From positions 450,172 to 514,171 of the forward strand of contig OY970358.1 of NCBI GenBank assembly GCA_963718575.1: a stretch of 64,000 bases of DNA, read 5' to 3'. The notes under the pieces are model-generated. The model made no database searches. It was not told the DNA's origin and was given only the letters and a program-made list of their open reading frames with translations. The position numbers and the translations under genes were made by a program. Below are positions 6,914 through 60,392 of the stretch, piece after piece. Source of the DNA: an uncultured bacterium. Lineage in GTDB: Bacteria; Patescibacteriota; Minisyncoccia; UBA6257; 2-01-FULL-56-20. The stretch's first letter is position 1; every line of letters starts with the position of its first letter.

Positions 6914-6924
6914 GGGTGTAATGG

Positions 6925-30585: not shown

Positions 30586-31722
30586 CTACCCCGTCCAATA
30601 ATAGAGCATAATGCTCAGATCCTGAAGGTCTACCTTGCTGCCGCCATCGAACTCGGCGGGCGGATAGTTCGTCCCCCAATAATAGAGGAGTATGGAGAAG
30701 TCGGCGAGATTGACCTTGCCGTCACCGTTAAGATCGGCGAGGTAGCTTTTGCTCGCGCTTCCGGCACCGACAAAGAACGAGACCGACTGACTGACCTCGC
30801 TCCGGGCGGAGGCGCCGTTCGCGGTGGTCACAAAATCCGCATCCACCGTATGAAGTTCGTTGTTTTGAAGCGGCGAGGTGTCGAATAATATCTTCCAATT
30901 CCCGCCGGTATCGGTACTCGTCGTGACGACGATATTATTACCCGAATGGATATGCGTCTCGACCGTCACCGAAGGCGCGGACTGGCCCGAAATAGTGAGA
31001 GTGTCCCCCTTCTGTAATTGCCGCTTATCGATAGTGATCGTCGGTGGCAGATATTCCCCCGATATGGTGGTCGCGGCATTCGCAGTGATCGTCACGGTCG
31101 TCGTGAGCGCGATCGATTTCAGCCCGTCGGAATCCTGTGCCCAAAATCCGAATGTCGCCACGCCCGGCGATACGTTCGTGGTGGAAAAATAAAAATCTCC
31201 GCTCGAGTCCGCCTTGACGAGACCGATCGTGGCGCCGTCGTCCAAAATGTTCACGCTCGATTCCGGATATGCCGTCCCCTCGATGATGACTTCCGTGGGA
31301 TTGGGAGGGGTATATGCTCCCGGCGAATAGCTCCCGCCACCGGAGGGCGACGTACCCGGACCCGGCAATGGCGCCGTTGATACTATCTGGCATGTGGCGG
31401 AACATCCGTCGCCCGGCGTGCCATTCAACGCACCGTCATCGCATTGTTCGCCATATGCTTCCTGCAATATCCCATCGCCGCAATACGGACCATATCCGCT
31501 GCAATCCGGAAGGCAGTTTTTTCCTGCCGACGATGTCGCATATTGTCCGTTGTCGGTGCCGTCATCGCAGACTTCTCCGGGGTCGACAATGCCATTCCCG
31601 CAGATGCTCACATACACCGTCGTTGTCGCGATGTATTGCGCATGCGCGATGCGTGAAAAGGGCAGCGCTAAAAATACTCCGAGAAATAATGCAAAGAGAA
31701 GCGATTTATATCCATGCCACAT
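30586..31722 (-). CDS. Secreted protein with N-terminal Cys-rich repeats (CxxGxxDxGExCDDGxxNG) and a C-terminal type-I dockerin pair
   Basis: Signal peptide. Repeated CGNGIVDPGEVCDDGTDNG / CGDGILQEAYGEQCDDGALNG units. C-terminus DLNGDGKVNLADFSILLYYWG...DGGSKVDLQDLSIMLYYWTG is a duplicated Ca-binding dockerin motif. Confidence 0.7.
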   Translation of the reverse strand: MWHGYKSLLFALFLGVFLALPFSRIAHAQYIATTTVYVSICGNGIVDPGEVCDDGTDNGQYATSSAGKNCLPDCSGYGPYCGDGILQEAYGEQCDDGALNGTPGDGCSATCQIVSTAPLPGPGTSPSGGGSYSPGAYTPPNPTEVIIEGTAYPESSVNILDDGATIGLVKADSSGDFYFSTTNVSPGVATFGFWAQDSDGLKSIALTTTVTITANAATTISGEYLPPTITIDKRQLQKGDTLTISGQSAPSVTVETHIHSGNNIVVTTSTDTGGNWKILFDTSPLQNNELHTVDADFVTTANGASARSEVSQSVSFFVGAGSASKSYLADLNGDGKVNLADFSILLYYWGTNYPPAEFDGGSKVDLQDLSIMLYYWTG

Positions 31723-31751
31723 GATCCTTCATCTGTTGTTTTTTTTGACGA

Positions 31752-32771
31752 TCACCGATAATCCGGAGGGGGCGGAGGGGGCATTGTTCTACCACGGCCT
31801 CTGTGGCGCCATTTCCCTGCCATTTTACGAGCGCCCCAGAAGATCAAGTAAAGCAGGGCTAAAATAAGGATGATAACGCCGAACGTCATGAATTTTTCGC
31901 TCCATCGAAGCCCCCAGAAACCATATCCAACATATCCAAGGAGCGTTCCCGGCGGCAGGATCGCGAGATCCAGCGTCCCTTGTCCGATGACGTTCGCACT
32001 ATCCGCTCCGTAGATCTGATAGAAGACCCGGTAGCTTCCCTGCGGCAGATATGTCGGCATTTCTGCCGTCACCGTCTTTGCTTCGAACGGCTGGACGGAA
32101 TCAAGTCCGTTGGTATTTTGCTCCGTTTCGAGGACGTTTCCCGTAAGATATTCCTGATATTGGAAGACCACCTTGCCCGGCGTGCCTGCAATGTTCCCGG
32201 TATTGTCCAGATCCATGGCAAAAAGGATCTTTCCGGGGAAGTGCATCCACCAAAGCGTATGGCCGACTTCGGTGTTCGTCATCGTGACGCGTTTGACCGA
32301 GAGATTCGCCATCTTGCCGCTCACCACCTGAAGGCTTACGTCGATCTGCGCACCGATCGTGATGCCGACCGTTCCCTTTGCCGGACCGCCGAGCGGCGAA
32401 ACGACCACCTGAATGTTCCCGGTATAACTTCCGAGCTTTGCGTCACTCGGAACGTTCACGCTTACCGTCATCGGCTCCTGCTGAGTTCCGGCAGGCATGA
32501 TGAACTGCGTCCCCCTGTCTATCAATATCCAGCTATCCGCTCCGGGAACATTGATCGTCACATTCGTCTGAAGGTCCTCGGTGGGATCGCTCCGCACAAG
32601 CGTGATCACCTGTTCGTAATGCGAATTTTGCGTAAGCTGCGCGTTCGTCACATATGGCGGCGTGATGCCGAATCCGTCCGCATGAGCTTGAAGAACCGGC
32701 GGCAATCCCGCCGCTGTCATTCCCGCCGCAGCGAGCAATACCGCAATAATGGAAAATATTTTTTTCATCAC
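31752..32771 (-). CDS. Membrane-anchored surface protein, CARDB/DUF916-DUF3324-like (same family as 47868, 51603, 52648)
   Basis: Signal peptide, beta-rich ectodomain (...NTGNIAGTPGKVVFQYQEYLTGNVL...GSYRVFYQIYGAD...), C-terminal TM helix and a short basic/Pro-rich tail. Confidence 0.45.
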   Translation of the reverse strand: MMKKIFSIIAVLLAAAGMTAAGLPPVLQAHADGFGITPPYVTNAQLTQNSHYEQVITLVRSDPTEDLQTNVTINVPGADSWILIDRGTQFIMPAGTQQEPMTVSVNVPSDAKLGSYTGNIQVVVSPLGGPAKGTVGITIGAQIDVSLQVVSGKMANLSVKRVTMTNTEVGHTLWWMHFPGKILFAMDLDNTGNIAGTPGKVVFQYQEYLTGNVLETEQNTNGLDSVQPFEAKTVTAEMPTYLPQGSYRVFYQIYGADSANVIGQGTLDLAILPPGTLLGYVGYGFWGLRWSEKFMTFGVIILILALLYLIFWGARKMAGKWRHRGRGRTMPPPPPPDYR

Positions 32772-32886
32772 GACATCTCCCCAAAAATAAATTCGCGAGC
32801 CTGTGCGCGAATCCCAACGCTTCTCATAATAATACCACAGGCGAAGACGCTTATGATAAGCACTGGGGAAATCCCGTGGATAAGGA

Positions 32887-34689
32887 TTACCAGGTCGAAG
32901 GCGCGCTTCTCACGGCGACGAACGTGTTCTGTCCGGTATAGGCGCCGGACAACTGAATCGTTGAGGGGATCGAGATACCCCAGAATGTAGTTCCGAGCGA
33001 TGAGGTCGCCGTCGAGGTGGATTTTGGTATCTGTATCGAGAATAGGGTTCCGGGATTGACCGCCAATGTGAATCCGGATCCGTACGCGACAACCGAACTC
33101 GCGAACACAAGCTGGTTGACGGGGATGGTTGATGTCGTGGAGACCGGACAACCCGGGTAATTGGAACACATGCTCGTTCCATAAAGCTGTTCATTCAGGC
33201 CTACGTTGCCGAGCTCGGAAAGGGTCGTCGTCGCAGAAGTGGTAGGGGTCGTCGATCCCGGAGCCAACGCCCCGAAGCTGATGCCCGGCGTATTCAACTG
33301 CGAAGCAAGGAAACTCATTACGGTATTGGTGCTCGCACTCTGAGTGGTCACTCCCGCAGAACCAAGATAGTTCGTCGCCTGAGCCGCAGCGGCCCATGCC
33401 TGATTATAATATTGCGTGCTCGTTGCCGTGCCATCGGTCGGATCTGCCATGTACCACAGCGGGAATGTGCATGTCCACTGCGAAGTGATGGAACTTGAGC
33501 CAGCGCACGATCCGCCATTCTGAGAACAGCTGTAAGCCCACGTGCTCGTTCCTACCGCTGCAGGATAGCAATTATTCGCATTGTAATTTCCCGAGGACGA
33601 ACAGTTCGAAAGGCCGATGCCCGTCCGGAACACATCGATGCTTGCGGTTGCCACCTCCTGTCCGCCAACGGAGTTCAAACAACTATTGTTATCGGTCGCC
33701 GTGAATGTAACCTGGAATCCCGATGTCTGTCCGCCGGGATTGGTGAGAGAGAGCGGGGTGCTTGATCCGCCGACGTTCAAAAGATTGATGCTCGAAGAAG
33801 CGATGGTCGGTGCAACCGCACTCACCGTCTCCGTCGCGTCAGTTGCTTCGGCGCCGCCCGCCGCTGCGAACTGGTGGTTATCAATGATATATCCGTAGGA
33901 AGCATATCCCTGATCCTGGGTCGGGATCGCGATAGTGGACGTGCAGCTCGGATTTGCAAGCGACGCAGCCGAGGAACAATAGGTGCCCGCAGGGCCGCAC
34001 GCGGTGCCGGTGAAGTCGGTTGCCTTACACACAAAAAGTTGTACGGTGTCGGTCGCACCGGTGAAGTTGTCGGTGTCGGACGCATTGGTCGACCACGTCA
34101 CCGTGGCGCCCGGGATCGCCGGAGAGTTATTGGTAAAACTACTGAAATTCGGCCGATGGTTGACAACAAACGTACCCGTATACGACGTTGTATTGCATTT
34201 GGCCCCGCCCGCATTGCCATCGCAGATCCAGGCGTAGTAGGTGTTTATCTGCGCGTCGGCTGCGGATGTCGTGTAAAATGCGGTAGAGGTTGCCGCGCTC
34301 GTCGTCGAGGTCGAGACGGTCCATTGTCCGCCGTTGCAGTTCGGGGCTGCCGAATTGTTCGCCGTCGGCGTGCTGCTCGTCTTGCAAAGCAAAAGGTAAT
34401 AATTGTCACTGTTCGGATCCGTGCCGATCGCGTACCACGTCACTGCATTTCCCGCATTGGTAGGGGAAGAGGTTGCGGAGACCGGATTCTCATACGCGAT
34501 CACCGTCCACAGCGGCGGGGTGTTCAGAACGTTCACCGTTGTCGTCGCCGTGCTTTGTGCGATGGCGAACCGGGCATGCTGTATAGAATCGGTCGCAAAA
34601 AAATAGGTCACCAAGATGACCACGGCCACCAAACACCCGGAGACCAGAACGGAGATACCGATTTTTTTTCTCGAATCAGAGGAGTTCAT
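32887..34689 (-). CDS. Large Thr/Ser/Ala-rich secreted protein (600 aa)
   Basis: N-terminal signal anchor, low-complexity Thr/Ser-rich sequence throughout, many Cys pairs. Confidence 0.5.
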   Translation of the reverse strand: MNSSDSRKKIGISVLVSGCLVAVVILVTYFFATDSIQHARFAIAQSTATTTVNVLNTPPLWTVIAYENPVSATSSPTNAGNAVTWYAIGTDPNSDNYYLLLCKTSSTPTANNSAAPNCNGGQWTVSTSTTSAATSTAFYTTSAADAQINTYYAWICDGNAGGAKCNTTSYTGTFVVNHRPNFSSFTNNSPAIPGATVTWSTNASDTDNFTGATDTVQLFVCKATDFTGTACGPAGTYCSSAASLANPSCTSTIAIPTQDQGYASYGYIIDNHQFAAAGGAEATDATETVSAVAPTIASSSINLLNVGGSSTPLSLTNPGGQTSGFQVTFTATDNNSCLNSVGGQEVATASIDVFRTGIGLSNCSSSGNYNANNCYPAAVGTSTWAYSCSQNGGSCAGSSSITSQWTCTFPLWYMADPTDGTATSTQYYNQAWAAAAQATNYLGSAGVTTQSASTNTVMSFLASQLNTPGISFGALAPGSTTPTTSATTTLSELGNVGLNEQLYGTSMCSNYPGCPVSTTSTIPVNQLVFASSVVAYGSGFTLAVNPGTLFSIQIPKSTSTATSSLGTTFWGISIPSTIQLSGAYTGQNTFVAVRSAPSTW

Positions 34690-34780
34690 CGGTCATTCAT
34701 CAATATCATGCTTACCATCAGTATACCGTCAAACCTTCCATAGAAAAAGGAAAGTTATCCACAGCCCTCGCATAAAAATA

Positions 34781-35989
34781 TTATTTATAACGGATGGCTT
34801 CGAGAGGGCTGATCGATGATGCGCGCTTTGCAGGGAAAATGCCGGTGATAAATCCCACAATCGCCGAAAAGAACGTGATGAATCCCAAAAATGCTCCCGG
34901 GAAGGCAAAGAGCGCTACGGCAGCTCCGCCGAAATGGGCCGCAACAAGGTTCAGTGCGTAATTAATGATGAGACCTCCGGCGATGCCCATTGCCATGCCG
35001 GTCATGCCGCCTAAAAATCCGACCACGACCGCCTCCGAAAGGAACAATATCTGGATATCCCGCGGCGAAGCGCCGAGCGTGCGCATGACACCGATTTCGT
35101 TTGTACGTTCGAGTAGGGTCACGGTCATGGTGTTGAACATGCCGATCGCCGAAACGACGAGTGCGATGCCTCCGAAGCCGGCAAGGAGCACTTGGACGCC
35201 GCTGAATATCTGGTTTGCCTGAGCGACCGTCTGGGAAAGGGCCGAGACGATGAACCCCTGCCCGACGATCGCGGCCTGGACCGCGCTCAAAAAATTGCTC
35301 GCCGAAACGCGGACCTGCACCTTGCTGTACGAGGTGATGCCAACCTGTGAAGAAAGCGTTGCAAGCGGGATCATCGCATAGATGGCCGCCGTATCGTTCG
35401 ACACGCCGACCACCGTGAAGGTCCCGTTCAGAGGAACCTCGTCGGTGGCGCCCGTCGCCGATCCGGCCGACGGAGCGACCACGCTGAAGGACACCGGCTT
35501 TCCCAATATCTGGCTCGGATCGGTCACGCCGAAAAGTTGCAATGCGGCGCTCGAGAGAACGATGTCGTTGCCGTCTCCCTGGGCGTCGGTGAACGACTGC
35601 CCCGCCGCCATCGCGATGCCCGCATATTTAAAATATGACGCTTTGACGCCCTGCAGGTCGGTGTTTGCGGAAAGTCCGTTGAACGTGACGACCGACGAGA
35701 GGTCCGCGAGCGGCGATACGTCGATCACGTTCGGCATCGCTTTGAACGACGCGAGCGTCGCGTCGGTCAGCACCACCGCGTTCGACGGAGGGTTGGTGAC
35801 GGTGAGACTGAGGAGTGTATCGCCGAACACGATCTTCTCGAGAAGAATATTCTGCAATCCGAATCCGAGCCCGACGAGCATGACGACCGCCGATGTCCCC
35901 ACGCCCATGCCAAGGATCGTAAGCCATGTCCTTGCAGGATTGGTCTTGAACATTCTTGTTGAAAGTTTAAGTGCGTCCCTTGCTCTCAT
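34781..35989 (-). CDS. ABC transporter permease, FtsX/MacB-like
   Basis: 402 aa: N-terminal TM helix, large extracytoplasmic domain, three C-terminal TM helices (FtsX fold). Paired with the ATPase immediately upstream. Confidence 0.75.
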   Translation of the reverse strand: MRARDALKLSTRMFKTNPARTWLTILGMGVGTSAVVMLVGLGFGLQNILLEKIVFGDTLLSLTVTNPPSNAVVLTDATLASFKAMPNVIDVSPLADLSSVVTFNGLSANTDLQGVKASYFKYAGIAMAAGQSFTDAQGDGNDIVLSSAALQLFGVTDPSQILGKPVSFSVVAPSAGSATGATDEVPLNGTFTVVGVSNDTAAIYAMIPLATLSSQVGITSYSKVQVRVSASNFLSAVQAAIVGQGFIVSALSQTVAQANQIFSGVQVLLAGFGGIALVVSAIGMFNTMTVTLLERTNEIGVMRTLGASPRDIQILFLSEAVVVGFLGGMTGMAMGIAGGLIINYALNLVAAHFGGAAVALFAFPGAFLGFITFFSAIVGFITGIFPAKRASSISPLEAIRYK

Positions 35990-36007
35990 GAGAATAATTT
36001 ATCCATG

Positions 36008-37363
36008 TTACAGATACATCCCCTGCCCCAATAATTTTTCCAGGTAGCGCGAGACCTCGCGCGCACCGTCCGAATCGATGCCGATCCCGTCATTATCAAA
36101 ACTCGCTTCCAGCCGGCGGCGCATGTCTTCCTGCTGGATGAATCCGCGGATCCGGAATTTCAGAAGTTCATCCATCCGCGCGGTCTGCTCCGGGCTGAGC
36201 GAGAAATGACATTCGCGCATAAGGTCGTCGCGCACCTCGGCGATCCGGTCCGCCTGCCGGGGCGAGGCGACCCGTGCCTTGAAGTTATCGCGGTAAACCC
36301 TGATCTCTCGAGCCTCCTTTAGGATAGTGTTTATCCGGCCGGAGAACAAATTCGCCTGCTCCGCGCTGATCTCGGGGCCTCCCGCCTCCAGTTTCTTCGT
36401 GAGCATACTCACGAAACTGCTGTCGTTGTATTTCCCGTTGATGTACATGCCAACGCACTTCTCGAGGCGTTCAATCTGATCGAACCCGATGTCCTGCGTC
36501 AAGAAATTGACGATGCTCTTGACCCGCAATTCCTCGGCTGACGCATACGGATAGATGCGCGCCAGCTTTTCGATCTCCGAAAGGATCGATGTGCCGGGAT
36601 CCGTCTGCTTGATCTGTTTTTTTTCGGGGTTGATCACTTCGCGCTCCACCTGGCCGTCGCGCAAATAATAGACGCGGTGCGCATACGGCAACAGCTTCGC
36701 GTCGTGCGTGACGAGAATGACGGTCTTCTTGTCCTTCATGTTGATCTCCTCCAGCGTGCCCATAACCTGATCGGACGATAACGAGTCGAGGTTGCCGACC
36801 GGTTCATCGGCGAATAATATTTCCGGATCGTTCACGAGTGAGCGCGCGACCGCCACGCGCTGTGATTGTCCTCCGGAAAGATTTGTGGAAAGTTTGTACG
36901 CCTGCTGGTCCACGCCGAATCTTTTCAAAAGCACCATCGCGCGGCGATCGCGCTCCGCTTTCGGAATTCCGGCAAAGATAAGCGGCAGTGCCACGTTATC
37001 AATGACGGTGAGCGACGGGATCAGGTTGAACGATTGATAGATGATACCCACGACCGAACGCTGGAACCGAACCATGTCTTTCACGTTGTACTTGTACGGA
37101 TTCTCGTTCTTCACGAGCACCTCCCCGGAGCTCGGCGGAAGAATGCCGAGCAATGAATAGAGCAGCGTCGATTTTCCGCAGCCGGACGGCCCGAAGAGAA
37201 TGATGTATTCGTTCGGATAGATCTCAAGGCTTTCGTCGCGCAACGCATAATATTCGTTCGCCTTCCCTTCGTTGTAGACGATCTTGATGTTCTTGACGCG
37301 GATGATGGGTTCGATCATGGTTGCTCTTATTATTTCTTCGCGCCGCCGACGCCGTTCAGCCAA
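36008..37363 (-). CDS. ABC transporter ATP-binding protein (MacB/LolD-like) with a ~200-aa C-terminal extension
   Basis: Walker A GPSGCGKST, signature LSGGQSQRVAVAR, Walker B ILFADEPVGNLD. Long C-terminal domain of unknown function. Possible start MIEPIIRVKN at 37318. Confidence 0.85.
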   Translation of the reverse strand: MAERRRRREEIIRATMIEPIIRVKNIKIVYNEGKANEYYALRDESLEIYPNEYIILFGPSGCGKSTLLYSLLGILPPSSGEVLVKNENPYKYNVKDMVRFQRSVVGIIYQSFNLIPSLTVIDNVALPLIFAGIPKAERDRRAMVLLKRFGVDQQAYKLSTNLSGGQSQRVAVARSLVNDPEILFADEPVGNLDSLSSDQVMGTLEEINMKDKKTVILVTHDAKLLPYAHRVYYLRDGQVEREVINPEKKQIKQTDPGTSILSEIEKLARIYPYASAEELRVKSIVNFLTQDIGFDQIERLEKCVGMYINGKYNDSSFVSMLTKKLEAGGPEISAEQANLFSGRINTILKEAREIRVYRDNFKARVASPRQADRIAEVRDDLMRECHFSLSPEQTARMDELLKFRIRGFIQQEDMRRRLEASFDNDGIGIDSDGAREVSRYLEKLLGQGMYL

Positions 37364-38814
37364 CCGAAAGTACCCTGGAAATTTTCGATAATGATATCAA
37401 TGATGCTCTTCTGTTGTTGTGGCGTAAGCAGGACGAAATCCTGCGAGCTCGTCGTGTTGCCGTCAGCATCCGTGCAGGTCACCCAATATTTATACACCGT
37501 CGCCGGCTGGAAGTTCGTCACCACGCTTACGTGCTTTGTCAGGAATGCCGTTTCCATCGTGGACGATTCCACGCCGGATCCGGCCGCCGACACGCCGCTC
37601 ACATATGACATGTTGCACTCGGACGGCTCATCGGTCTGCCACGATACGACGGTCTGCACCGTGGTGTCCTGCCCCGGATACAACGTCGAGTCGTCATTCA
37701 CCTGCGAGATCGTCGGCGGAATATTGTTTTTTGTCGTCACAAAATAGAGCGGCGTGCTCGTCACGATGTCCCCCGCCTGATTCGTCGCCTGGATCGTGAG
37801 GGAGTATCTGGTTTCAAAGACAAGGTTGGTAAGCTGCACGATGTGAGTGACGAGGAACGCCGGGTCGCCGGCCGAGAGCGATTGCCTTGAGTCGAGGTCC
37901 TCATACGTCACCGTCCCCGCCGATGGCAATGGCGTTCCCCAGCTCACCGTCGCATCATGTTCGTCCACCTTCACGAGATGCGGGTTCAGGATAGTGGGCA
38001 GTACCGCTTTTGTCGTGAACGTGAGATCCTGGCTCGTCCCCGCATCACCAAGCGATCCCTGCGACGATACTTTGTAATGATATTCAGTTTCCGGAGTGAG
38101 TCCGTATACGACGACCGAGTGGGTTTGCGTACTATTATTAGTATCCTGCTCCTGGCGCGGATAGGGATTCGCGGATCCCGGATTATATTCCGCATCGGAA
38201 GCGATATAGACCACTCCGTTCGAATCCTGGTCGGTGTTCCACGTGAACGACGCCTGGTCGGTGCCGATATCGATCTGCGGATTCCCTAAAATCTTCGGCG
38301 GCCCGACCACCTGGCTTGCCTGGCTATTGAGCGCCTGCTGAACGGCGCTGAGCGCCTGGGCGCTCGTGATATTCTGTATCGCCGCTACCGCATCCGACGC
38401 CAATGCCTGTTGCTGCGGACTGGCGATCGAGCTCAGATTGGCGGCACCGGGAGTGCTCGTCGTCGTAAAATTATAATTCCCCGAGAGCGCCTGATTTCCA
38501 TCCTGATCGGTCGCGCTGATACGGAAGAAATAAGACGTGTCGGGAGTAAGATTCGGAATGACCACCGAATGCTGGGTGCTGAGACTCCCTGTATTTCTGA
38601 CCCCGCAATAATTCGTATCCTGACTGAAATTTACAAAACTGTCCGTGCCTTCATTGGTCGTCCACGTGACCGTGGTCGATGTGGCTCCGACGCTGGCGAC
38701 GGAAACATCCGAAATGACGGGGGAGGTGTTCGCCGAAGCATGCCGGACGACGCCTATCGCGACGACGACCCCCGACACCAGGATGATCCCCCCTATAAAA
38801 TCACGCAGACGCAT
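37330..38814 (-). CDS. Secreted protein with fibronectin type III-like repeats
   Basis: Signal peptide; repeats such as ISDVSVASVGATSTTVTWTTNEGTDSFVNF...LTPDTSYFFRISATDQDGN resemble FN3 (purple-acid-phosphatase N-terminal type) domains. Confidence 0.55.
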   Translation of the reverse strand: MRLRDFIGGIILVSGVVVAIGVVRHASANTSPVISDVSVASVGATSTTVTWTTNEGTDSFVNFSQDTNYCGVRNTGSLSTQHSVVIPNLTPDTSYFFRISATDQDGNQALSGNYNFTTTSTPGAANLSSIASPQQQALASDAVAAIQNITSAQALSAVQQALNSQASQVVGPPKILGNPQIDIGTDQASFTWNTDQDSNGVVYIASDAEYNPGSANPYPRQEQDTNNSTQTHSVVVYGLTPETEYHYKVSSQGSLGDAGTSQDLTFTTKAVLPTILNPHLVKVDEHDATVSWGTPLPSAGTVTYEDLDSRQSLSAGDPAFLVTHIVQLTNLVFETRYSLTIQATNQAGDIVTSTPLYFVTTKNNIPPTISQVNDDSTLYPGQDTTVQTVVSWQTDEPSECNMSYVSGVSAAGSGVESSTMETAFLTKHVSVVTNFQPATVYKYWVTCTDADGNTTSSQDFVLLTPQQQKSIIDIIIENFQGTFGWLNGVGGAKK

Positions 38815-38839
38815 TGTTCTTTCATTTTAGCACGCTCCC

Positions 38840-41386: not shown

Positions 41387-41430
41387 GAAACGGTATTACC
41401 TAATAATTCTATCACACAAAAAATGTGTCC

Positions 41431-43200: not shown

Positions 43201-43291
43201 CTCGATCTTCCACGCTTCCTTTTTTTTCAGTACGAGCGTGTGCGGTTCCGTCCCCGGCCTAAAGTCACTCGTCTTTCTTTCCGGCGCACGC

Positions 43292-47860: not shown

Positions 47861-47867
47861 GCGGCCT

Positions 47868-50220: not shown

Positions 50221-50405
50221 TTATCTAATCTGAGTTATTTATTTGTAGGCAACTAAAAGTATGGCGACCTTTTTAATTAATTTTTATTATTTGGAAATCA
50301 TTATGATTTCTCGTTGAAATAATTGTACCATAACAAGTTGTAAACATTTCAAGGCCACTTATCCACAGGCAGTCAAGAGAACCGTCCACAGGATAGTTCG
50401 GATTA

Positions 50406-51536: not shown

Positions 51537-51602
51537 TTTTTTGATTTTTATCGAGAGCCTCCTTGTAAGAGTATTTTAAAACGGACCATCTGGTTTTGTA
51601 AA

Positions 51603-52655: not shown

Positions 52656-53670
52656 GGGGATGGCGAAGGTCTATCGTTGTTTCGAAATTTTTCCTCTTGA
52701 GAAGATTTTCGATCGCGCGGCGGCGGCGATGATGGCGCTTCTCATATTCATGATGGAGCCAGATCGCGAACGCTATTGTCAGAATGAACAACGTCGTGAA
52801 TAGCACGAGTATTTTTTTCCACGGGAGCACCCAGACAAGCGCGGTGTCCTGGAGGTCGCTGTTCTCTCCGCCGTAAGAAAGATCAAGCACCGCCCTGTAC
52901 TGGCCGAGACCCTCCTGCCCCTGCCATGGCGCGGTGAACGATTGTTTCGCGCCGGGCGCAAGTGGAATATTTTCCGGGTTCGCGTCGATCGATCCAAGTT
53001 CGTGTCCAGACCGGTCGTAGAACGTCATCTGGCCGGAAGGGGTGGAGGAAACCTGCCCGTTATTCTCTATTATATAGGTGAACACTACCGGAAACCCCGT
53101 ATAAAAGCTCTTTACTGAGGAAAAAGCGTCGATACGCAGGCTCGCGGTAAGGCCGGATGCGACGGACATATCAATGAGCGTCTGCGGAGCTCCGTTCAGA
53201 TGTTGTTCCGCATCGTCGCGCGTGCCGCCCTCGACGAACGCAATCACCGCATGATAATCCCCCGCCGCGGCGTACGGGCTGATCTGTATCTCGACGGGAG
53301 TGGTGGTCGATTGTCCGGGCTGCAGCAATATGGCTCCGCGCGAGACACCGATCCACGCCGCGAGCAATGTGGCGCGGTCGTCCTGTGAGGGATTTGCAAA
53401 CACCTGCGTACCGCTCGCGGTGAGCTCGCACACCGTGGCAAAGATATTCTCCTGGACGTTCGAAGTATTCGTGATGGTGAGCGAGTAATTCAAAATATCG
53501 TTCGGCACACCGCTGCCGTCGATCACTGCGGGGAGCACGGTGACGGTGTCGGTGTCGGCGTGCGCGACGGGGGGCGTATGCAAGCCGAAGAAAAAAAGAA
53601 TCGCCGCGGCGACGACGGCCGCCGCCATCGTTCCTTCTGTTATTTTTTCATAAAAAAAAGTTTTTTTCAT
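52648..53670 (-). CDS. Membrane-anchored surface protein, CARDB/DUF916-DUF3324-like (family A, member 3)
   Basis: Signal anchor; LNYSLTITNTSNVQENIFATV; GQMTFYDRSGHELGSI...GQYRAVLDLSYGG; C-terminal TM helix plus His/Arg-rich tail. Confidence 0.5.
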   Translation of the reverse strand: MKKTFFYEKITEGTMAAAVVAAAILFFFGLHTPPVAHADTDTVTVLPAVIDGSGVPNDILNYSLTITNTSNVQENIFATVCELTASGTQVFANPSQDDRATLLAAWIGVSRGAILLQPGQSTTTPVEIQISPYAAAGDYHAVIAFVEGGTRDDAEQHLNGAPQTLIDMSVASGLTASLRIDAFSSVKSFYTGFPVVFTYIIENNGQVSSTPSGQMTFYDRSGHELGSIDANPENIPLAPGAKQSFTAPWQGQEGLGQYRAVLDLSYGGENSDLQDTALVWVLPWKKILVLFTTLFILTIAFAIWLHHEYEKRHHRRRRAIENLLKRKNFETTIDLRHPHE

Positions 53671-55022
53671 CAGAATGAAGGGGCGACGACGTAAATAATA
53701 TTGTTCTGATATGCACCCGTGCCCTGTGTCGCCCCGATCTGTGCGCGATAGACCATATCCATCGTACTGCTTACCGCAGGAGACCCGCCATATCCGACCT
53801 CCGCGATCGTTGAAGTAAGCGCCGCGTAACTGTCATCGGCCGCGAAACGCACCGACCCTCCGGACAGCACCGGACTGCCGGCGTGATAGCCGTAACATCC
53901 CGCCGACGTGACGGTACATCCGCTCGACCATGCGACCGGACTCGCATTCGTTCCCGCAACGCCGGGCAGCTGATCGCCGCGCGCATCAGTAAGCTGCTGA
54001 TCCTGTTCGGCATATATCTCATACCCTTCCGCTGCATCCGTCGTGATCAAGAGCCGCTGCGCGGCGATCGTGCTCGTCCCGATAATAAGCGACCCGAAGG
54101 GAATGCCGGTAGCCGTCGTCGAAACGTTCGTCATGACGCCGTTCGTGCTCGTGCTCTGCGGAAGCCCGCTCACGGAAAAGGTCAGTGTCGCTCCCTGCAT
54201 GACCAGGCTCGGATAACTCGACGTGGCGCCGAGCGGGATCACCGTGCTATCGGCGGCAAGGATCGGACGGAAGAAGTAAGCGGTCCCGTTCGATGCGCCG
54301 GATGCCATGATGGTAAATTCATATTCCGTCGTCGCGCCGGCATTCTGCGTTGATGTCGACGTGCTTATGCCCGAAGTATTGTGCGTGCCGCATCCGTTGC
54401 CGACCCCTCCGCTGCACGCGTCGCTTGTCGAGAGCACCGCGGTCGAGATGACCTGATTGTCATTCCCGCCGGTGCTCGTTGCATAGCACCACGTCGAACT
54501 CGCGGTGCAAGCGCTCCCCGCTTCCGCCACAAGCCCGGGGGAAACCGTAAAATCTGACGACTGCGCAAATTGTAAACGAAACTTCAGGTTCGCGCTCCCC
54601 GTGATGCCGCTCATCTCTTTTATATTGAGCCGCAGTTTTATCACCTGCGCGTTCGCGATGTTCGAAGGCGCGACATTCTCCGCGGCAAGCGAACTGGTCG
54701 GCGTCTCGTCGTTCGCATCGCCGTACCATCGCCACGTCTGCGATACCGGTGCGAAGTCGCTCTCGTTCACCGGGCCGGTGTCGGCAGCGAAATCCGTACT
54801 TGCCGCGTTGCCGTTCATCATCGGCGCACCGCCCGAGATCACCTGGAAGTCAGTGGATGAGGCGTTCCCGCCGAACATCCCGACGAAACCATCCTGCACG
54901 ATGAAATCCGTGCTTGTCGCGGTGTCCGCAAATGAAAACACGAACGGTCCCGCGAAGAATGCGATGAGCGTTCCCGCGACCGCGGCGATGATCCATTTAT
55001 GGGGTGGTTTGATTTTGGCCAT
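53670..55022 (-). CDS. Surface protein family B, member 3 (ends ...GAYQNNIIYVVAPSF)
   Basis: 450 aa, N-terminal signal anchor, repeated ASSTDF units. The C-terminal tail matches the family-B motif. Confidence 0.5.
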   Translation of the reverse strand: MAKIKPPHKWIIAAVAGTLIAFFAGPFVFSFADTATSTDFIVQDGFVGMFGGNASSTDFQVISGGAPMMNGNAASTDFAADTGPVNESDFAPVSQTWRWYGDANDETPTSSLAAENVAPSNIANAQVIKLRLNIKEMSGITGSANLKFRLQFAQSSDFTVSPGLVAEAGSACTASSTWCYATSTGGNDNQVISTAVLSTSDACSGGVGNGCGTHNTSGISTSTSTQNAGATTEYEFTIMASGASNGTAYFFRPILAADSTVIPLGATSSYPSLVMQGATLTFSVSGLPQSTSTNGVMTNVSTTATGIPFGSLIIGTSTIAAQRLLITTDAAEGYEIYAEQDQQLTDARGDQLPGVAGTNASPVAWSSGCTVTSAGCYGYHAGSPVLSGGSVRFAADDSYAALTSTIAEVGYGGSPAVSSTMDMVYRAQIGATQGTGAYQNNIIYVVAPSF

Positions 55023-55458
55023 TGTTGATCGTCGTTACGATCGCGCTGTCGGAGCGGAGTGTTTCCCAGAAAAGCACCTGCGATATGGGGATCATCATTT
55101 CGTCGGTAGGACCATGGATCTCACTGCCGAGCTTAACCAACTTCAATGGTGACTGGTTCTGCGCGCTCAGATCCTGCCCGGGCTGTGAGAGTTCCAAATA
55201 ATAAACATCCCTCAAGGTGATGACCCCCTCGAACGGGACATCCCAAAAATGGCCGAAGTACACCTGATTGTTGGTGAGAAAGACCGCCTTCCATTGCGTT
55301 GCGCCATTCACCAGCCACCATCCGACAAGGACGATAATAATAGTGACCACCAGCCAGAGAAATATCTTTCCGCGGCGCGGACGGTATCTTTTATGCGATG
55401 CCCCGTCTGCCGATCCCTGATATTGTTCTTCCCCTTTTAAATTTATTGTTTCTCTCAT
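54997..55458 (-). CDS. Hypothetical single-pass membrane protein (153 aa)
   Basis: Basic N-terminus, TM helix IFLWLVVTIIIVLVGWWLV, small extracytoplasmic domain. Confidence 0.4.
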   Translation of the reverse strand: MRETINLKGEEQYQGSADGASHKRYRPRRGKIFLWLVVTIIIVLVGWWLVNGATQWKAVFLTNNQVYFGHFWDVPFEGVITLRDVYYLELSQPGQDLSAQNQSPLKLVKLGSEIHGPTDEMMIPISQVLFWETLRSDSAIVTTINNGQNQTTP

Positions 55459-55486
55459 TTTTTTATAGCATTATTCGCACCATTTC

Positions 55487-58264
55487 TTATTGCGTGGTCC
55501 CGGTCGAATCCGTTCCCGTCGCGTCCGTGATCACGTCTGCGGTTGTGTCCGAAGAAGAACTGTCTGTATCCGGCACGGCAATCGTTGTGTCGGTTGAGGT
55601 CGGAGCCGACACGCTACTATCAATATCGTCGGTCGTTCCGCTTGTTGCATCTGTTGAGCTGCTGTCATCATCAGAAGTCACGACCGTGGTTGTCGCTGCC
55701 CCGGTATCGGTTGTGGTTGCCGCTTGCATGTTGCCGTCAGTAGCATCACCACCTCCTCCACCGCTGGTATCTGCGGGGGGGGTATTTTGGTTCCATGAAA
55801 CATCGGCTCCTCCCACGTGATAACTTTGCACCATGACCCAGTCGAACGGGACGTCGTTCGCCTGCGGCACTGCGACACCCACGGAAAATCCGACGCCGTC
55901 CTGCTCGCTTATCACCACCAATGGTACGGCGGTGAGTGCAGTCGGCGTGATGAAAATTTTCGACGATGATGTCACTTGTGTATTGGATATGAAAACCGCC
56001 GAGGAGAGAGCGCCGAGCGTCGCAATGCCGGAAATCTGATCCGGGCCGGATGGCACTTTGATGTTTCCTCCGGGAAGTATCACCTCCGTCTTCACGAAAA
56101 GATTTTCCACGGCGATCATCGATGCCCGTATGAATGTCTGCACCGCATCGCCGATGTTCGCGAAGATGCCGAAAAAATTACGGAGGTCGTCCCCGATCGA
56201 GAAAGAAGACGAAGCGGTGCTTGTCGTACCAATAAGGTCCCCCGGTTCCCACCCGACATCCACGAATGCCAGAATGGAGCCCGTAGTGGTGCCTTCCGAC
56301 GGATCGGGGGTAAAACTTTGCATTGCGATGGCGACCACCCGGCCCGGTCCCGTCGCGCGCATGGCGATGCCGGGGATGTCCGACGACGTAAGATAGTCGC
56401 CGGCATTGATATCGCCGTTTTCGTTCGTCACATTGATGGGAACGCGGCCGGCGAGAGCAACAAGCTCCTGGACGCCCGATGGCGGATCCGAGTTGCCGAG
56501 CGTGGCACCCGGCTGCGTGGAGATGATGCCCATGAGAGTGTTGTCGTAGGGGCTTTCTGATTGCTTCACGCCGTCGCTGATAGAAGGGTCTAAACTTATC
56601 ACATCCCCCGCCGTGAGCTGCGTACCGGTCGCGGCATAATATACTTCCGCGACATCCGAACCGGCGCGGATTTCCTGCAGGGTGAGCTCCGCATAGCTAA
56701 GGTTCGAAACCGTGCCGGCGTAATCGGCACAGAGCCAGTAATTCTGCTTGGTTGTCGAGGCGGGAGCGTCCACCACGTTCAACGTCATATTGAAAATGCC
56801 CGGGATCGTGGTGCTTGCGCGATCGAACGTGCTTGTCACCACGCTGCCGACAAGGGAGGTGCATGTCGCCGTTTTATACACGCCGATGCCGACCGAACTG
56901 GTGGCCGCGGTCGTACTTGCCATGACGTTCGCCGTGATCCACACCTCCGAATTCAGGCTTGATGGCGTGATGCCTGCGGTAGTATCCGACGCCATGGCAA
57001 CCGTGAGCACTTTGTTCACGGAGGTGCTCGCGATCACGGTGAATCCCGTGCTTCCCCAGGAAAGATTGCCGTTGCCATCGGTAACAAGCGACTGCCCCGC
57101 CGTGCCGGTCGAGTTCGGTAATGTCAGCGTAAAACTTCTCGGCGTGCTCGTGCTCCCCTGAAGGGTCACGGTAGAGCTCGTGAGGGAATTATAGAAGAGG
57201 AGCTGGCCCTCCGTTGATGAGGAAACGCCCAATGCTTCCGGCCCCACCACCTGCAATTGCGTGGACGGGGAGGATGTGCCGATCCCGATATCGCCGTTGC
57301 TCATAACGGTGAAGATATTCGACGAGGTGGCAATATAAAAAAGCGAGTTTGAAATATTCGTCGTCGTGGCGATGGTCAGTTGTCCGGAAGAGGCCACCTC
57401 GAGCACCGTGGATGAATTATTTTCGAACTCCAGATAATCGCCGTTGTATGTTCCCGAGGTATTGATACCGATGAACGTCCCCGAGGCGACACCGTTCTTT
57501 ATCGGCAACTGCCCGAGCGATATGAGCGACGCGTTTGCGGATTGGGTCGGAGCCACCGCCATCTGCAACATGTTCGCCGACACCATGCCGGCGACCCGGA
57601 ACGTGGATGAAGTGATATAGTTGTTCGCCGAAAAGAATTGTATCGCACCGGTGCCGGCACCTCCCTGCAATGTCAGCGTGTTGGTGCCGGTCGCGTTGAT
57701 CTCCGGATTCACGCCCGCGAGCGTGAGCGTGTCGGACGCGATCACGGGGATCATCGTGCCCGATGCATTTGTGGAAGCGCTGTATCCATCCACGGAATAC
57801 GAATTGATCGCATACCCCGACGCGACCACCCTCTCGCGCGGAGAGAGCGTTTCGAATACCTCGCTTCCGCCCGTGCACGTCGGGTCCACGAGCGTGGCGA
57901 CCTGGACATTCAAATAGACCGTGTTGCTATCCTGAAAATCATATGTCAGCGCGTCGCCGCCCGCACTCGTATCGCCCACGCCGATATCAAAGACCCCGTT
58001 TGCCACCGTGGCGCTCATGATCAATGCGGTCGCGGCGGGCCACACCTGCGACCCCCCGGACGACGCATTGAAAAGGGAAAATCGGAAACAATAGGTCGTA
58101 CCCGCGCCGCCCAAGAGATTGCCGCTCGAGCTTAAAAGCCTTCCCTGATAACTAAGGATTCTCGGGACGCCGGCCGTTTGGGCAAAAGCAAGATGTGCCC
58201 ACGCCGCAGAAAGAAGGATGACGGCGAGGGAAAGGATAATTCCGATAGTATGCTTTAGTTTCAT
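55487..58264 (-). CDS. Giant secreted/surface protein (~925 aa) with acidic Ser/Thr/Asp-rich C-terminus
   Basis: Signal peptide MKLKHTIGIILSLAVILLSAAWAHLAFA (start 58264). Long beta-rich body. C-terminal ...TDTGAATTTVVTSDDDSSSTDATSGTTDDIDSS... low-complexity region. Confidence 0.5.
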   Translation of the reverse strand: MKLKHTIGIILSLAVILLSAAWAHLAFAQTAGVPRILSYQGRLLSSSGNLLGGAGTTYCFRFSLFNASSGGSQVWPAATALIMSATVANGVFDIGVGDTSAGGDALTYDFQDSNTVYLNVQVATLVDPTCTGGSEVFETLSPRERVVASGYAINSYSVDGYSASTNASGTMIPVIASDTLTLAGVNPEINATGTNTLTLQGGAGTGAIQFFSANNYITSSTFRVAGMVSANMLQMAVAPTQSANASLISLGQLPIKNGVASGTFIGINTSGTYNGDYLEFENNSSTVLEVASSGQLTIATTTNISNSLFYIATSSNIFTVMSNGDIGIGTSSPSTQLQVVGPEALGVSSSTEGQLLFYNSLTSSTVTLQGSTSTPRSFTLTLPNSTGTAGQSLVTDGNGNLSWGSTGFTVIASTSVNKVLTVAMASDTTAGITPSSLNSEVWITANVMASTTAATSSVGIGVYKTATCTSLVGSVVTSTFDRASTTIPGIFNMTLNVVDAPASTTKQNYWLCADYAGTVSNLSYAELTLQEIRAGSDVAEVYYAATGTQLTAGDVISLDPSISDGVKQSESPYDNTLMGIISTQPGATLGNSDPPSGVQELVALAGRVPINVTNENGDINAGDYLTSSDIPGIAMRATGPGRVVAIAMQSFTPDPSEGTTTGSILAFVDVGWEPGDLIGTTSTASSSFSIGDDLRNFFGIFANIGDAVQTFIRASMIAVENLFVKTEVILPGGNIKVPSGPDQISGIATLGALSSAVFISNTQVTSSSKIFITPTALTAVPLVVISEQDGVGFSVGVAVPQANDVPFDWVMVQSYHVGGADVSWNQNTPPADTSGGGGGDATDGNMQAATTTDTGAATTTVVTSDDDSSSTDATSGTTDDIDSSVSAPTSTDTTIAVPDTDSSSSDTTADVITDATGTDSTGTTQ

Positions 58265-58275
58265 TGCATATTCGC

Positions 58276-58650
58276 TCACTTGAGGATATTTGCGACAATG
58301 GCATATATCAGGAAGATGCACAGCATAAAAAGAAGTGCGATGGTGATATAGATGACCTTCCGCGCGAGGCGCAGGACCTCTTCTCCCGAGCTATGCGCCA
58401 TAAGCCAGCGGCGGACTTTATTCCTCATCCCCGATCCTGCGCCCGGCTTCGCGCCGCCGGATTTATTCTTTTCAAGATACTCTCCCAAAGCCTCTTCGGT
58501 CGTCACCCATGCAATATTCAAATAGATCTGCTTCCCCGAGAGCTTTCCTTTTCTGATAAGTTGCCCTAAATAATCCGGAGTATATCCGGATATTTTGGAA
58601 GCTTCCTTCAGGGTGATGTAACGAGTCCCTCCTTTTTTATTTTCGACCAT
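58276..58650 (-). CDS. Small membrane-tethered helix-turn-helix protein
   Basis: N-terminal YITLKEASKISGYTPDYLGQLIRKGKL resembles a MerR/excisionase-type HTH. C-terminal TM helix VIYITIALLFMLCIFLIYAIVANIL. Confidence 0.4.
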   Translation of the reverse strand: MVENKKGGTRYITLKEASKISGYTPDYLGQLIRKGKLSGKQIYLNIAWVTTEEALGEYLEKNKSGGAKPGAGSGMRNKVRRWLMAHSSGEEVLRLARKVIYITIALLFMLCIFLIYAIVANILK

Positions 58651-58862
58651 AATCCTTTAAAACACTGCATTTCCCGCAATCTCGGGGGGCGATATTTCCC
58701 CAAACTCGACCGCCGAGATATCTGATTTCATTATACACGACTCTGATTTGACTGCTTGTGGATAAATAGTTTTTGTAAAAACCCAAGGGAGCGCATCCGC
58801 TGAAAGTAATGCACACAATTCTTCTTGCGGGAAGAATGCTCGTGTCTTACAATGAATCGTAT

Positions 58863-59333
58863 ATGGATAATATGTCGTTTTTTAGAAGACTCGCATCCGT
58901 CAGGTCGAATATGGAAGCTCCGGATATTAATATTGATCTCGCGAAGGCCACGTTACCGATTCCGGCTCCGCCGAAATCCGCCGAGCAAGATACCGACGGA
59001 CCCGTTGGGCAGCTTACGGTGGATATCTATCATACGCCCAACGATATCGTCGTTGAATCCGCGATAGCGGGGGCGCACCCCGAAGATATCAATGTTGTCG
59101 TGGCAACCGATTCGATATCAATAAAGGGCCTCCGGAGGCGCGATCCCGAATCCCCTGAGGCTGAATATCTGCACCAGGAATGCTATTGGGGTAAATTTAC
59201 CCGCTCCATCATCCTTCCGGAAGAAGTAGACCCGGAAAACGCATCTGTTAAGTTCAAGAACGGCATTCTTTCTGTGCGAATGCCAAAAACGAATCGCAAA
59301 AAGACCCGGAAATTGGAGGTTCGAATGGATTAA
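58863..59333 (+). CDS. Hsp20/alpha-crystallin family small heat-shock protein
   Basis: TVDIYHTPNDIVVESAIAGAHPEDINVVVATDSISIKG...FKNGILSVRMPK. Start MDNMSFF (58863) or MSFF; ORF track start 58809. Confidence 0.8.
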   Translation: MDNMSFFRRLASVRSNMEAPDINIDLAKATLPIPAPPKSAEQDTDGPVGQLTVDIYHTPNDIVVESAIAGAHPEDINVVVATDSISIKGLRRRDPESPEAEYLHQECYWGKFTRSIILPEEVDPENASVKFKNGILSVRMPKTNRKKTRKLEVRMD

Positions 59334-59411
59334 GGGAAGGGAGTCTTTTCGGCGAGACAAAAAAGCGGCTTTCGAGCCGCTTTTTTACTTATCTATTTTA
59401 TCCGGCTATCG

Positions 59412-60392
59412 CTATAACAGAAAGTGGACAATAAGCTGGAAGATCGCGAGTCCGGAGATCCCTATGATGGCCAGGTACGGGAGCATCGCAGCTGCCCAAT
59501 TCTTCTGTACCGGAGCCGCCGCAGGCGCCGTCGGCGTATATTCTTCGACACGCGTGTTCCCGGCCATATCTATGGCACGCACCGCGATGACATCGTTCAG
59601 ACTTTGATCCTGAATGAGATAGGGGCTTATCGCACGGATCCAGTTCCACTGATTCTGTGGGGTGTTCAGTTGTGAAGGCGGTACTTCAGCCACTTCATAA
59701 TGATCGATCCCCGTCTGCTTATCCACCGTCGAGAAGATGGCGAACCATTGGCCGTTGAAGAGCGACGGGTCATGATACACTCCCACAGTGAAAGGTTCGG
59801 GCGGCGTCGTGTCGTTCTGGATCGCCTCCTGCATCGCGTCCACTGAAACATAACTTCCTTTCAGCATTTGAGGAGTATAGGTTGCGGTTGCGGTCTGCAG
59901 CGCCGCGGGAGTTCCCAGTCCGTCGTTCAATATCGCCTGCGTGCTGCTGAGGAAAGAAAGATGCGCAGCCTGGAACAGTGTTGAGGTTGCTAGGGGAGTG
60001 GATGAGGTCGGGAATTTGAAATATATCGTGGCAAGCTGATTGCTCAAGCTCGGATCGCCGGCCACGCGCCCGCAATATCCGCCGGGCAATCCACCTACGA
60101 AAGAAATAACTCCGTATGATGAATATATCGTAGGCTGTTTTACCCACAGCGTGAGAATCGAATCGCCGTCACTTACGCCGACCGCCTGGAGTATATTGGC
60201 AGGATAAGCAAGGTCAACCTGAGCGGCGTTGATGCACTGACCCTGGTTGTCTAAGCGGACATTAACCGCGAACGTGACCCCCGGCGGATACTTTCCCGTC
60301 GCCGGATCCAGATAGATCTGGGCGGCATGAGCAAGTAAGGGAACCGCAAATATGGAAAGTATAAAACTGAAACCAGCCAGATATTTTTTCAT
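59412..60392 (-). CDS. Cohesin-like surface protein with C-terminal TM anchor
   Basis: Signal peptide. IYLDPATGKYPPGVTFAVNVRLDNQGQCINAAQVDLAYPANILQAVGVSDGDSILTLW...LATIYFKF follows the cohesin pattern. C-terminal helix AAMLPYLAIIGISGLAIFQLIV. Confidence 0.45.
   Translation of the reverse strand: MKKYLAGFSFILSIFAVPLLAHAAQIYLDPATGKYPPGVTFAVNVRLDNQGQCINAAQVDLAYPANILQAVGVSDGDSILTLWVKQPTIYSSYGVISFVGGLPGGYCGRVAGDPSLSNQLATIYFKFPTSSTPLATSTLFQAAHLSFLSSTQAILNDGLGTPAALQTATATYTPQMLKGSYVSVDAMQEAIQNDTTPPEPFTVGVYHDPSLFNGQWFAIFSTVDKQTGIDHYEVAEVPPSQLNTPQNQWNWIRAISPYLIQDQSLNDVIAVRAIDMAGNTRVEEYTPTAPAAAPVQKNWAAAMLPYLAIIGISGLAIFQLIVHFLL

Follow-up and report, generated by a model that had tools for sequence, protein, structure and literature searches.

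A conserved cell-envelope locus of Patescibacteria with homologues of Firmicute WxL Interacting Proteins and cohesin-dockerin modules

What is built by a run of genes for secreted and membrane proteins that keeps its order across many bacterial lineages, and how is the product held at the cell? The question is raised by an island of about 30 kb (positions 30586-60392) in a stretch of 64,000 nucleotides, hereafter called the window, from an uncultured bacterium of the Patescibacteria (candidate phyla radiation, CPR; GenBank assembly GCA_963718575.1, contig OY970358.1, positions 450,172 to 514,171 of the forward strand). The island comprises 21 genes on the minus strand, with a single plus-strand Hsp20 gene (58809-59333) as the sole interruption, and is flanked by genes for a major facilitator superfamily (MFS) transporter and FtsH on one side and by a tRNA-Ile gene on the other. 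The names of close homologues place its bearer, a tiny and probably host-dependent bacterium, in the Paceibacteria/Minisyncoccia. The initial annotation, which located the features of the island correctly and nearly all on this one strand, had read them as a surface complex assembled through cohesins and dockerins.

Domain content, homology, membrane topology and gene order incline us, with reserve, to the view that the island is a conserved cell-envelope locus giving rise to a tethered surface scaffold, coat or attachment structure on the outer face of the membrane. A modular unit is indeed encoded, as had been proposed at first, and cohesin-dockerin pairs recur in it. These pairs are probably one of two anchoring links and not the organising principle, since the best conserved part of the locus is not this pair.

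The conserved core of the island

A scan of one genome per species yielded 233 relatives of Sm, a small secreted protein of the island, and 79 loci were retrieved for comparison of gene order. Nearly all are labelled Patescibacteria (Kaiser-, Lloyd-, Nomura-, Sung- and Harrisonbacteria, Paceibacterota and Minisyncoccia). The survey of related genomes called for at the outset finds the order conserved in dozens of them. The genes fall into two modules. Module 1 has the order [large protein][p153] Sm3-Lip3-Lip2-Sm(1-3 copies)-Lip1-DocB-[Hsp20-CohA]-[acidic protein-LamG], and module 2 the order LamG-FN3-ABC-FtsX-BigT1-Lip4-DocA-Sm-CohB-CohA-short Doc; the window holds both, joined, while in some relatives they are separate. 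Because the order is kept at about 40% protein identity across many lineages, the genes form one functional unit.

Across the 79 loci, Sm3 is present in 69, DocB in 62, Lip in 61 and CohA in 34, the last figure being lowered by contig ends. A Lip gene directly follows Sm in 52 of the 69 loci with room for it, Lip3 directly follows Sm3 at a conserved position, and DocB occurs after Lip1 in 62 of the 79. In module 2 loci Lip4 always directly follows BigT1; BigT1, Lip4 and DocA are always contiguous, in this order in 9-11 loci. CohA follows DocB-Hsp20 in at least 20 loci, and CohB adjoins Sm and CohA in module 2 loci. In 20 of the 28 loci with enough flank, the dockerin gene has a cohesin gene no more than 4 kb away. 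The most conserved core thus consists of the Sm family, three WxLIP-like membrane proteins and DocB, and it is this distribution (61-69 loci, against 34 for CohA) that reduces the cohesin-dockerin pair to one link of two.

Hydrophobicity profiles show N-terminal signal-like segments on all island proteins except the ABC ATPase and Hsp20, and C-terminal transmembrane (TM) segments in Lip1-4, CohA and CohB. The island encodes exported components together with membrane anchors of three kinds. Neither Pfam nor NCBIfam searches detect a catalytic domain in any island protein which, together with the conserved gene order, agrees with the early judgement that these are not independent secreted enzymes. 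The paralogous families noted in the same annotation are all significant in blastp comparisons, as detailed below.

The four Lip proteins are 338-374 amino acids (aa) long. Lip1 resembles Lip2 (blastp, E 3e-56) and Lip3 (E 1e-26), and Lip4, a weak paralogue of Lip2 (E 6e-7), was included in the family alignment. The WxL Interacting Proteins (WxLIP) of Firmicutes are described as proteins of 320-380 aa with a signal peptide, the immunoglobulin-like (Ig) domains PGBD (PF06030) and HBD in this order, and a C-terminal TM segment; the signal/two-Ig/TM layout and the size of the Lip proteins are the same. PF06030, formerly DUF916 and now named 'WxL Interacting Protein, peptidoglycan binding domain', is matched by 22 of the 26 Lip family members (best E 8.6e-9), and the Lip proteins of the window, taken singly, stay below its Pfam cut-off (20.5 vs 27.3 bits). 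The family profile matches the solved EfmWxLIP1 of Enterococcus faecium (PDB entries 9i25_C and 9i1y_A; E 1e-7), with both Ig domains aligned in the same order. Against six WxLIPs from Firmicute plasmid WxL clusters, hhalign gives a probability of 98.7% (E 2e-16) over 248 columns. By these sequence comparisons the four Lip proteins are true homologues of Firmicute WxLIP (DUF916/DUF3324). The earlier description of four C-terminally anchored CARDB/DUF916-like proteins is correct as to DUF916/DUF3324 and the anchor, and only the CARDB part has to be dropped.

The three Lip orthogroups of module 1 can be told apart. Among the Lip orthologues in loci L002-L080 those of Lip1 always end in a second TM segment, and those of Lip3 share a cytoplasmic tail motif, hV[IV][ND]L[KR], represented in the window by TIDLRHPHE. 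The tail of Lip2 in the window, TLDLRNPHDR, resembles it. An intracellular factor may bind at the Lip3-type motif.

Sm1 (379 aa) and Sm2 are 88% identical over their full length (blastp), and one to three tandem copies occur in other genomes (for example in loci L049 and L056). Threonine makes up 18% of Sm1. The Sm alignment, with a mean column identity of 50%, shows signal cleavage at an AxA site, the motif LTxVSDTLSD conserved at the start of the mature protein and an invariant C-terminal Y-x-x-T-P-x-F. The C-terminus of Sm3 (450 aa in the window, up to 2390 aa in orthologues elsewhere) is related to that of Sm (blastp, E 1e-13; hhalign probability of the C-domains 99.9, E 1e-34). The YV(A/V)(T/A)PxF tail, previously noticed on three proteins, proves specific to the Sm and Sm3 families: it ends 84 of 86 Sm open reading frames (ORFs) and 26 of 41 Sm3 ORFs, and only 1 of 3647 other ORFs in the related loci. 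Neither Pfam nor NCBIfam contains a model for Sm. A profile search of 1.84 billion sequences gathers 2063 cluster representatives at E≤1e-3, with the Sm module at the extreme C-terminus of all longer relatives; it lists close family members only and gives no bridge to known families. The YVATPxF proteins are a large, previously unannotated family.

The AlphaFold model of Sm (pLDDT 89) comprises two β-domains, and the confident AF2 models, those of Sm and BigT1, are all-β and Ig-like. Among solved structures the nearest in fold are BslA/YweA, the TLP-1b pond fibril, chaperone-usher pilins, MSCRAMM adhesins and the TasA fibre, all of which function by strand complementation or surface self-assembly; the best matches of the Sm model are pilins, two-Ig MSCRAMM adhesins and the TasA fibre. 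BigT1 and LamG share a different C-terminal region of about 290 aa (blastp, E 9e-30), with two β-domains and the conserved pattern YWGIxVP...GxYtGxNTF...W-COOH.

The second link would be formed by the cohesin and dockerin proteins. Cohesins have a nine-stranded jelly-roll fold that binds a dockerin. The cohesin modules proposed for 43292-45115 (CohA) and 59412-60392 (CohB) score 37.6 bits (aa 50-158) and 26.4 bits (aa 33-142) against Pfam PF00963, above its curated cut-off of 24.1 bits, and the two proteins are paralogues (blastp, E 2e-11). Each contains one cohesin module, and there is therefore no scaffoldin. The dockerins of DocB (33.1 bits) and DocA (24.3 bits) likewise exceed the cut-off of Dockerin_1 (PF00404, 22.9 bits). 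Type I dockerins consist of two repeats of about 22 residues, each with a calcium-binding loop DxNxDGxxxxxD. DocB, with the two canonical loops DLNGDGKVNLVD and DLNGDGKVDLPD, is the textbook duplicate that had been predicted; in DocA, for which the same had been claimed, the first loop is canonical and the second degenerate (FDGGSKVDLQD). The loop motif is found in 37 of 44 long DocB orthologues. The C-terminal 250 aa of DocA and DocB are 36% identical (dockerin pair, blastp E 8e-36), and the dockerins differ at helix positions (...LLYYW vs ...MLAHW). Profile searches bear out both cohesin modules, and the dockerin tails match the dockerin profile and have putative cohesin partners encoded in the same island. 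The N-domain of DocB is that of Sm (hhalign probability 99.8, E 5e-29).

Proposed assembly and its alternatives

From these domain identities, homologies, topologies and gene orders we infer all protein-protein contacts that follow, as well as the coat or attachment function. The proteins would form a non-enzymatic scaffold that is held at the membrane by two non-covalent links, the WxLIP-like anchors and the cohesin-dockerin pairs. Firmicute WxLIP completes the sandwich of its WxL partner with one of its own loops, which turns into a strand (PMC10599100), and PDB entry 9i25 is described as 'WxLIP bound to long WxL'. Given their homology with WxLIP and their conserved adjacency to the candidate partners, Lip1-4 may hold C-domains in the same way, each gripping a secreted partner by adding a β-strand to its C-terminal β-sandwich. 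For Lip1-3 these partners would be Sm1/Sm2, as the abundant small subunit, and Sm3, bound through the C-domain with the free YVATPxF end; for Lip4 they would be BigT1 and LamG, bound through their different common C-domain. DocB would enter the Sm assembly by way of the N-domain that it has in common with Sm; its dockerin, which replaces the Sm C-domain, would bind in a calcium-dependent manner to the cohesin at the N-terminus of the membrane-anchored CohA. The partner of DocA would probably be CohB, because the two genes lie close together in module 2 and because the dockerins of DocA and DocB are not alike at helix positions. Binding surfaces that face outward would come from the large lectin-like, FN3 and Thr-rich proteins. 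Whether Sm is pictured as a fibre or as a two-dimensional coat, the data fit equally well.

Four observations weigh against this scaffold. The segment NQIDKxxxYFDLK of Firmicute WxLIPs corresponds to a gap in the CPR Lip family in the hhalign alignment, and the binding mode of Lip may for that reason differ from that of WxLIP. Homology between the Sm C-domain and the BigT1/LamG C-domain was considered and rejected (hhalign probability 2%), so that they are handled here as two domain types. The AF2 models of Sm and BigT1 represent monomers. Finally, the dockerin gene has no cohesin gene as a neighbour in 8 of the 28 loci whose flanks are long enough.

Several other explanations have to be set against the scaffold. 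Sm might instead polymerise into a pilus-like fibre by donor-strand exchange, with the Lip proteins as membrane-bound chaperones capping the Sm C-domain and DocB as a basal subunit on CohA. In chaperone-usher pili incomplete subunits are capped by PapD, and TLP-1 is known to assemble by donor-strand exchange. The invariant free ...YVATPxF end of Sm, the conserved N-terminal strand LTxVSDTLSD common to Sm and DocB and the high conservation of Sm (50% mean column identity) all suit such a fibre, as does the donation of a WxLIP strand to the sandwich of its partner (PMC10599100). The Sm and BigT1 models match the fold of strand-complementation assemblies (chaperone-usher pili, TasA fibres, TLP-1 pond fibrils, MSCRAMM adhesins and the BslA coat protein), which also use Ig-like subunits and a two-Ig partner or chaperone. 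However, this likeness is at the level of the fold only. The Lip proteins are membrane-anchored, Pfam reveals no usher-like or sortase-like component among the island proteins, the Sm monomer model places the N-terminal strand confidently within the N-domain, and a two-dimensional coat accounts for the same data. A donor-strand fibre is consequently considered unlikely.

Slightly less probable still is a true, highly diverged WxL cluster, in which the Sm and BigT1 C-domains would be descendants of the small and large WxL domains, with peptidoglycan as their ligand as in Lactobacillales. WxL clusters are defined by two proteins with a C-terminal WxL domain (PF13731, with dual Trp-x-Leu motifs; Hassan et al.) and are described as almost entirely confined to Lactobacillales and Bacillales. 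The logic of the cluster is certainly the same: small and large secreted proteins with a common domain at the extreme C-terminus lie beside WxLIP homologues of like size and layout, the large proteins carry lectin or adhesin modules, and the function is non-enzymatic. The B. cereus cluster, for comparison, reads lectin protein-LPXTG-3xWxL-WxLIP. The C-domains are similar in size (about 190 aa), and a relaxed hhalign comparison aligns, in the same order, FG, an aromatic-x-hydrophobic strand and a last strand Y-x-x-x-L-x-[WYF]-x-[LA]; moreover, some real WxL proteins have Y for the second W (...ISYQLYNT). Nevertheless, PF13731 has no match in the Sm or BigT1 families, and against 14 real WxL domains the hhalign probability stays below 1%, even with a profile of 139 sequences, the resemblance being confined to the co-linearity of these three short motifs. 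Because the defining domain is undetectable, the locus is not filed here as a WxL cluster. It differs in further respects: the island has three to four Lip orthogroups where a WxL cluster has one WxLIP, its Lip proteins do not have the N-terminal motif of WxLIP, and its host is a CPR bacterium. WxL/Csc clusters often include a small LPXTG protein, whereas no island protein ends in a sortase signal (LPXTG, a hydrophobic stretch and a basic tail in succession), and the island has a cohesin-dockerin pair in place of any sortase link.

Alternatively, the genes may encode independent surface proteins that are kept together for co-regulation and form no physical complex. The contacts in the scaffold are all deduced, promoter and terminator scans of the island do not rise above chance, so that no transcription units can be claimed, and the two modules separate in some genomes, all of which speak for this reading. 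Against this stand the strict gene order at about 40% identity across many lineages, the joint recurrence of matched modules (cohesin with dockerin, WxLIP homologue with adjacent partner) and the Sm N-domain in DocB, which together make mere co-location improbable.

A cellulosome-like complex, with dockerin enzymes on cohesin scaffolds degrading polysaccharide, was suggested by the presence of cohesin and type I-like dockerin modules (with duplicated calcium loops, scores above the Pfam cut-offs, cohesins on cell-bound proteins and dockerins at the C-terminus of secreted ones) and of lectin-like and FN3 modules nearby, but is rejected as close to refuted: neither DocA nor DocB has a catalytic module, DocB carrying the N-domain of a structural subunit instead, the island has no glycoside hydrolase or other enzyme domain, its anchors have a single cohesin each, with no scaffoldin and a TM helix in place of S-layer homology (SLH) or sortase attachment, and the conserved neighbours are structural proteins.

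Accompanying genes and genomic surroundings

The remaining genes of the preferred surface scaffold are listed with the core in Table 1. The FN3 and LamG modules named in the initial annotation are recovered by Pfam (fn3/Pur_ac_phosph_N and DUF2341 with Laminin_G_3). LamG is conserved after the acidic protein in module 1 loci, and FN3 protein orthologues share a C-terminal end ...TFGW(V/L)xxxG. The Thr-rich proteins described there as giant and secreted are indeed secreted and Thr-rich, with sizes of 600-925 aa that hardly justify the word giant. The largest, the Thr/Ser/Gly-rich protein, matches no Pfam or NCBIfam model and lies upstream of p153/Sm3 in about 16 loci.

The hyper-acidic, S/D-rich character of the acidic protein is evident from its pI of 4.1 and its 16% Ser and 9% Asp. 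It has no Pfam match, lies between CohA and LamG in 7 loci and measures 479-675 aa in orthologues. The mechanical ORF 41431-43569 overlaps the 3' end of CohA by 278 nucleotides, and its first 123 codons, rich in Arg/Lys, are probably untranslated, the likely start being 43200. Its end, ...VVTPVSF, made the protein a candidate fourth member of the tail family; the candidate was rejected and the resemblance put down to chance, because the orthologues have no such end.

The ABC pair is a MacB/FtsX-type system as initially stated, with a permease that combines the MacB core (MacB_PCD) and FtsX and a separate, adjacent ATPase (ABC_tran). It departs from MacB/FtsEX-type systems in that the ATPase continues at its C-terminus for about 200 aa that match no Pfam family, its length of 440 aa being kept in module 2 loci, and in that the pair is tied to that one module. 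The role of dedicated exporter that had been assigned to it is not supported, since all cargo candidates carry Sec-type signals, and for the same reason a mechanotransducer is more likely. MacB/FtsX pairs are not known to export folded proteins. The pair might supply mechanical energy for extracytoplasmic assembly or remodelling, itself exporting no protein.

The Hsp20 protein encoded at 45112-45687 has neither a signal peptide nor a hydrophobic segment, and its place between DocB and CohA is kept in 23 loci. Together, these features suggest a cytoplasmic partner, perhaps the 88-aa charged cytoplasmic tail that follows the TM segment of CohA. The plus-strand gene at 58809-59333 is a second Hsp20/alpha-crystallin gene inside the island. 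Two small membrane proteins, p153 and p124, have no Pfam match; the position of p153 is conserved in 10 loci, and p124 in 2-4 close loci. On visual inspection the N-terminal part of p124 resembles a helix-turn-helix; the protein may be a regulator tethered to the membrane.

Table 1. Genes of the island on the minus strand, with positions in the window.
Name	Position	Strand	Features
DocA	30586..31722	-	Signal peptide, Cys-rich DUF4215 repeats and Big_6 Ig (both Pfam matches), C-terminal dockerin at ~30589-30738
Lip4	31752..32768	-	WxLIP-like, two Ig domains, C-terminal TM aa 291-318, short basic tail
BigT1	32887..34689	-	Thr/Ser-rich secreted protein
MacB-type permease	34781..35989	-	MacB_PCD PF12704 (E 4e-18) and FtsX PF02687 (E 9e-15)
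ABC ATPase	36008..37318	-	ABC_tran PF00005 (E 3e-30), aa 42-189; likely start ATG 37318
FN3 protein	37330..38814	-	Secreted; fn3 (E 1e-19), Pur_ac_phosph_N (E 1e-26), Pfam
LamG	38840..41386	-	Large secreted lectin-like protein; DUF2341 and Laminin_G_3 (Pfam); BigT1-type C-domain ending ...LPWP
Acidic protein	41431..43200	-	Ser/Asp-rich, secreted, small C-terminal Ig-like domain
CohA	43292..45115	-	Signal peptide, N-terminal cohesin at ~44642-44968, Big_13 Ig, TM aa 489-519
Hsp20/alpha-crystallin protein	45112..45687	-	Between DocB and CohA; Pfam HSP20 (E 2e-7)
DocB	45739..47427	-	Signal peptide, Sm-type N-domain, Big_13/Big_6 Ig, duplicated dockerin at ~45760-45891
Lip1	47868..48992	-	WxLIP homologue, two Ig domains, two C-terminal TM segments
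Sm1	49081..50220	-	Small two-domain secreted subunit; BslA-like N-domain, 190-aa C-domain, end YVATPIF-COOH
Sm2	50406..51536	-	Tandem duplicate of Sm1
Lip2	51603..52655	-	WxLIP homologue, C-terminal TM; weak PF06030 match; position conserved
Lip3	52648..53670	-	WxLIP homologue, C-terminal TM, conserved cytoplasmic tail motif
Sm3	53670..55022	-	Secreted; different N-terminal part, Sm-type C-domain ending YVVAPSF
p153	54997..55458	-	Small single-pass membrane protein, TM aa 27-55; upstream of Sm3
Thr/Ser/Gly-rich protein	55487..58264	-	925 aa, secreted, acidic low-complexity C-terminus
p124	58276..58650	-	Small basic protein, C-terminal TM; first gene of the run
CohB	59412..60392	-	Signal peptide, N-terminal cohesin at ~59967-60296, C-terminal TM aa 299-326

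The remainder of the window contains housekeeping and sugar-nucleotide genes. The tRNA-Ile gene directly adjoining CohB (60438-60510, minus strand) has the anticodon TAT (UAU), which is uncommon in bacteria. On the same strand, at 2328-8376, genes for a GDP-mannose dehydratase and epimerase accompany a Wzy_C (O-antigen-ligase-like) membrane protein, a family of enzymes that includes protein O-glycosyltransferases. As the island proteins are very rich in Thr and Ser (18% Thr in Sm1), glycosylation of surface proteins is worth considering. A large serine recombinase gene (14693-16348, minus strand) abuts a tRNA-Phe gene, and about 6 kb beside it (approximately 16-21 kb) have a lower G+C content (0.44-0.46). 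It may represent an integrated element that has nothing to do with the island. For the island itself a mobile-element origin was rejected, because its gene order is conserved in a housekeeping context.

Public contigs 276 kb and 881 kb long contain the same sequence. In a second public assembly of the same genome (locus L001; ENA ERZ25039484, contig_32193), the gene calls of the island are broken: CohA is called as two pieces (121+360 aa), as is DocB (329+233 aa), and Lip2, Lip3 and Sm2 are in fragments. The broken calls look like assembly frameshifts, the copy in the window being intact.

Significance for the envelope biology of Patescibacteria

The Patescibacteria are a huge and mostly uncultured group of tiny bacteria; the few that have been brought into culture live on other cells, to which they are attached. 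Our literature searches found no description of WxLIP homologues, or of this operon, in Patescibacteria. A dockerin protein of unknown function has been reported to be essential in a cultured Saccharibacterium (PMC10633639). The 'PGBD' proteins reported to be highly expressed in cultured Paceibacteria (PMC10936435) contain, as far as the wording of that paper indicates, the classical PG_binding domain and were discarded as evidence of expression; the supplements of that study contain no DUF916, dockerin or cohesin terms. A preprint on CryoSeek glycofibrils was likewise set aside, as it has no link to Patescibacteria.

The locus described here provides a widely conserved parts list for the biology of the CPR envelope and of attachment, including the large and hitherto unannotated Sm family of subunits. 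It places homologues of a Firmicute surface-anchoring protein far outside the orders for which the WxLIP family has been described, and points to the use of cohesin and dockerin as a membrane tether for structural proteins, not enzymes. In evolutionary terms it supplies a bridge between strand-complementation assemblies, WxL-type clusters and cohesin-dockerin systems. A bolder and doubtful extension is that Paceibacteria build their main surface structure by membrane-based strand complementation that needs neither usher nor sortase, with WxLIP-like chaperone-anchors for Sm and cohesin-dockerin pairs for fastening. If true, this would add to the sortase and chaperone-usher pathways a third route by which Ig-fold surface polymers are assembled, and the locus would be either ancestral to the Firmicute WxL system or its sister.

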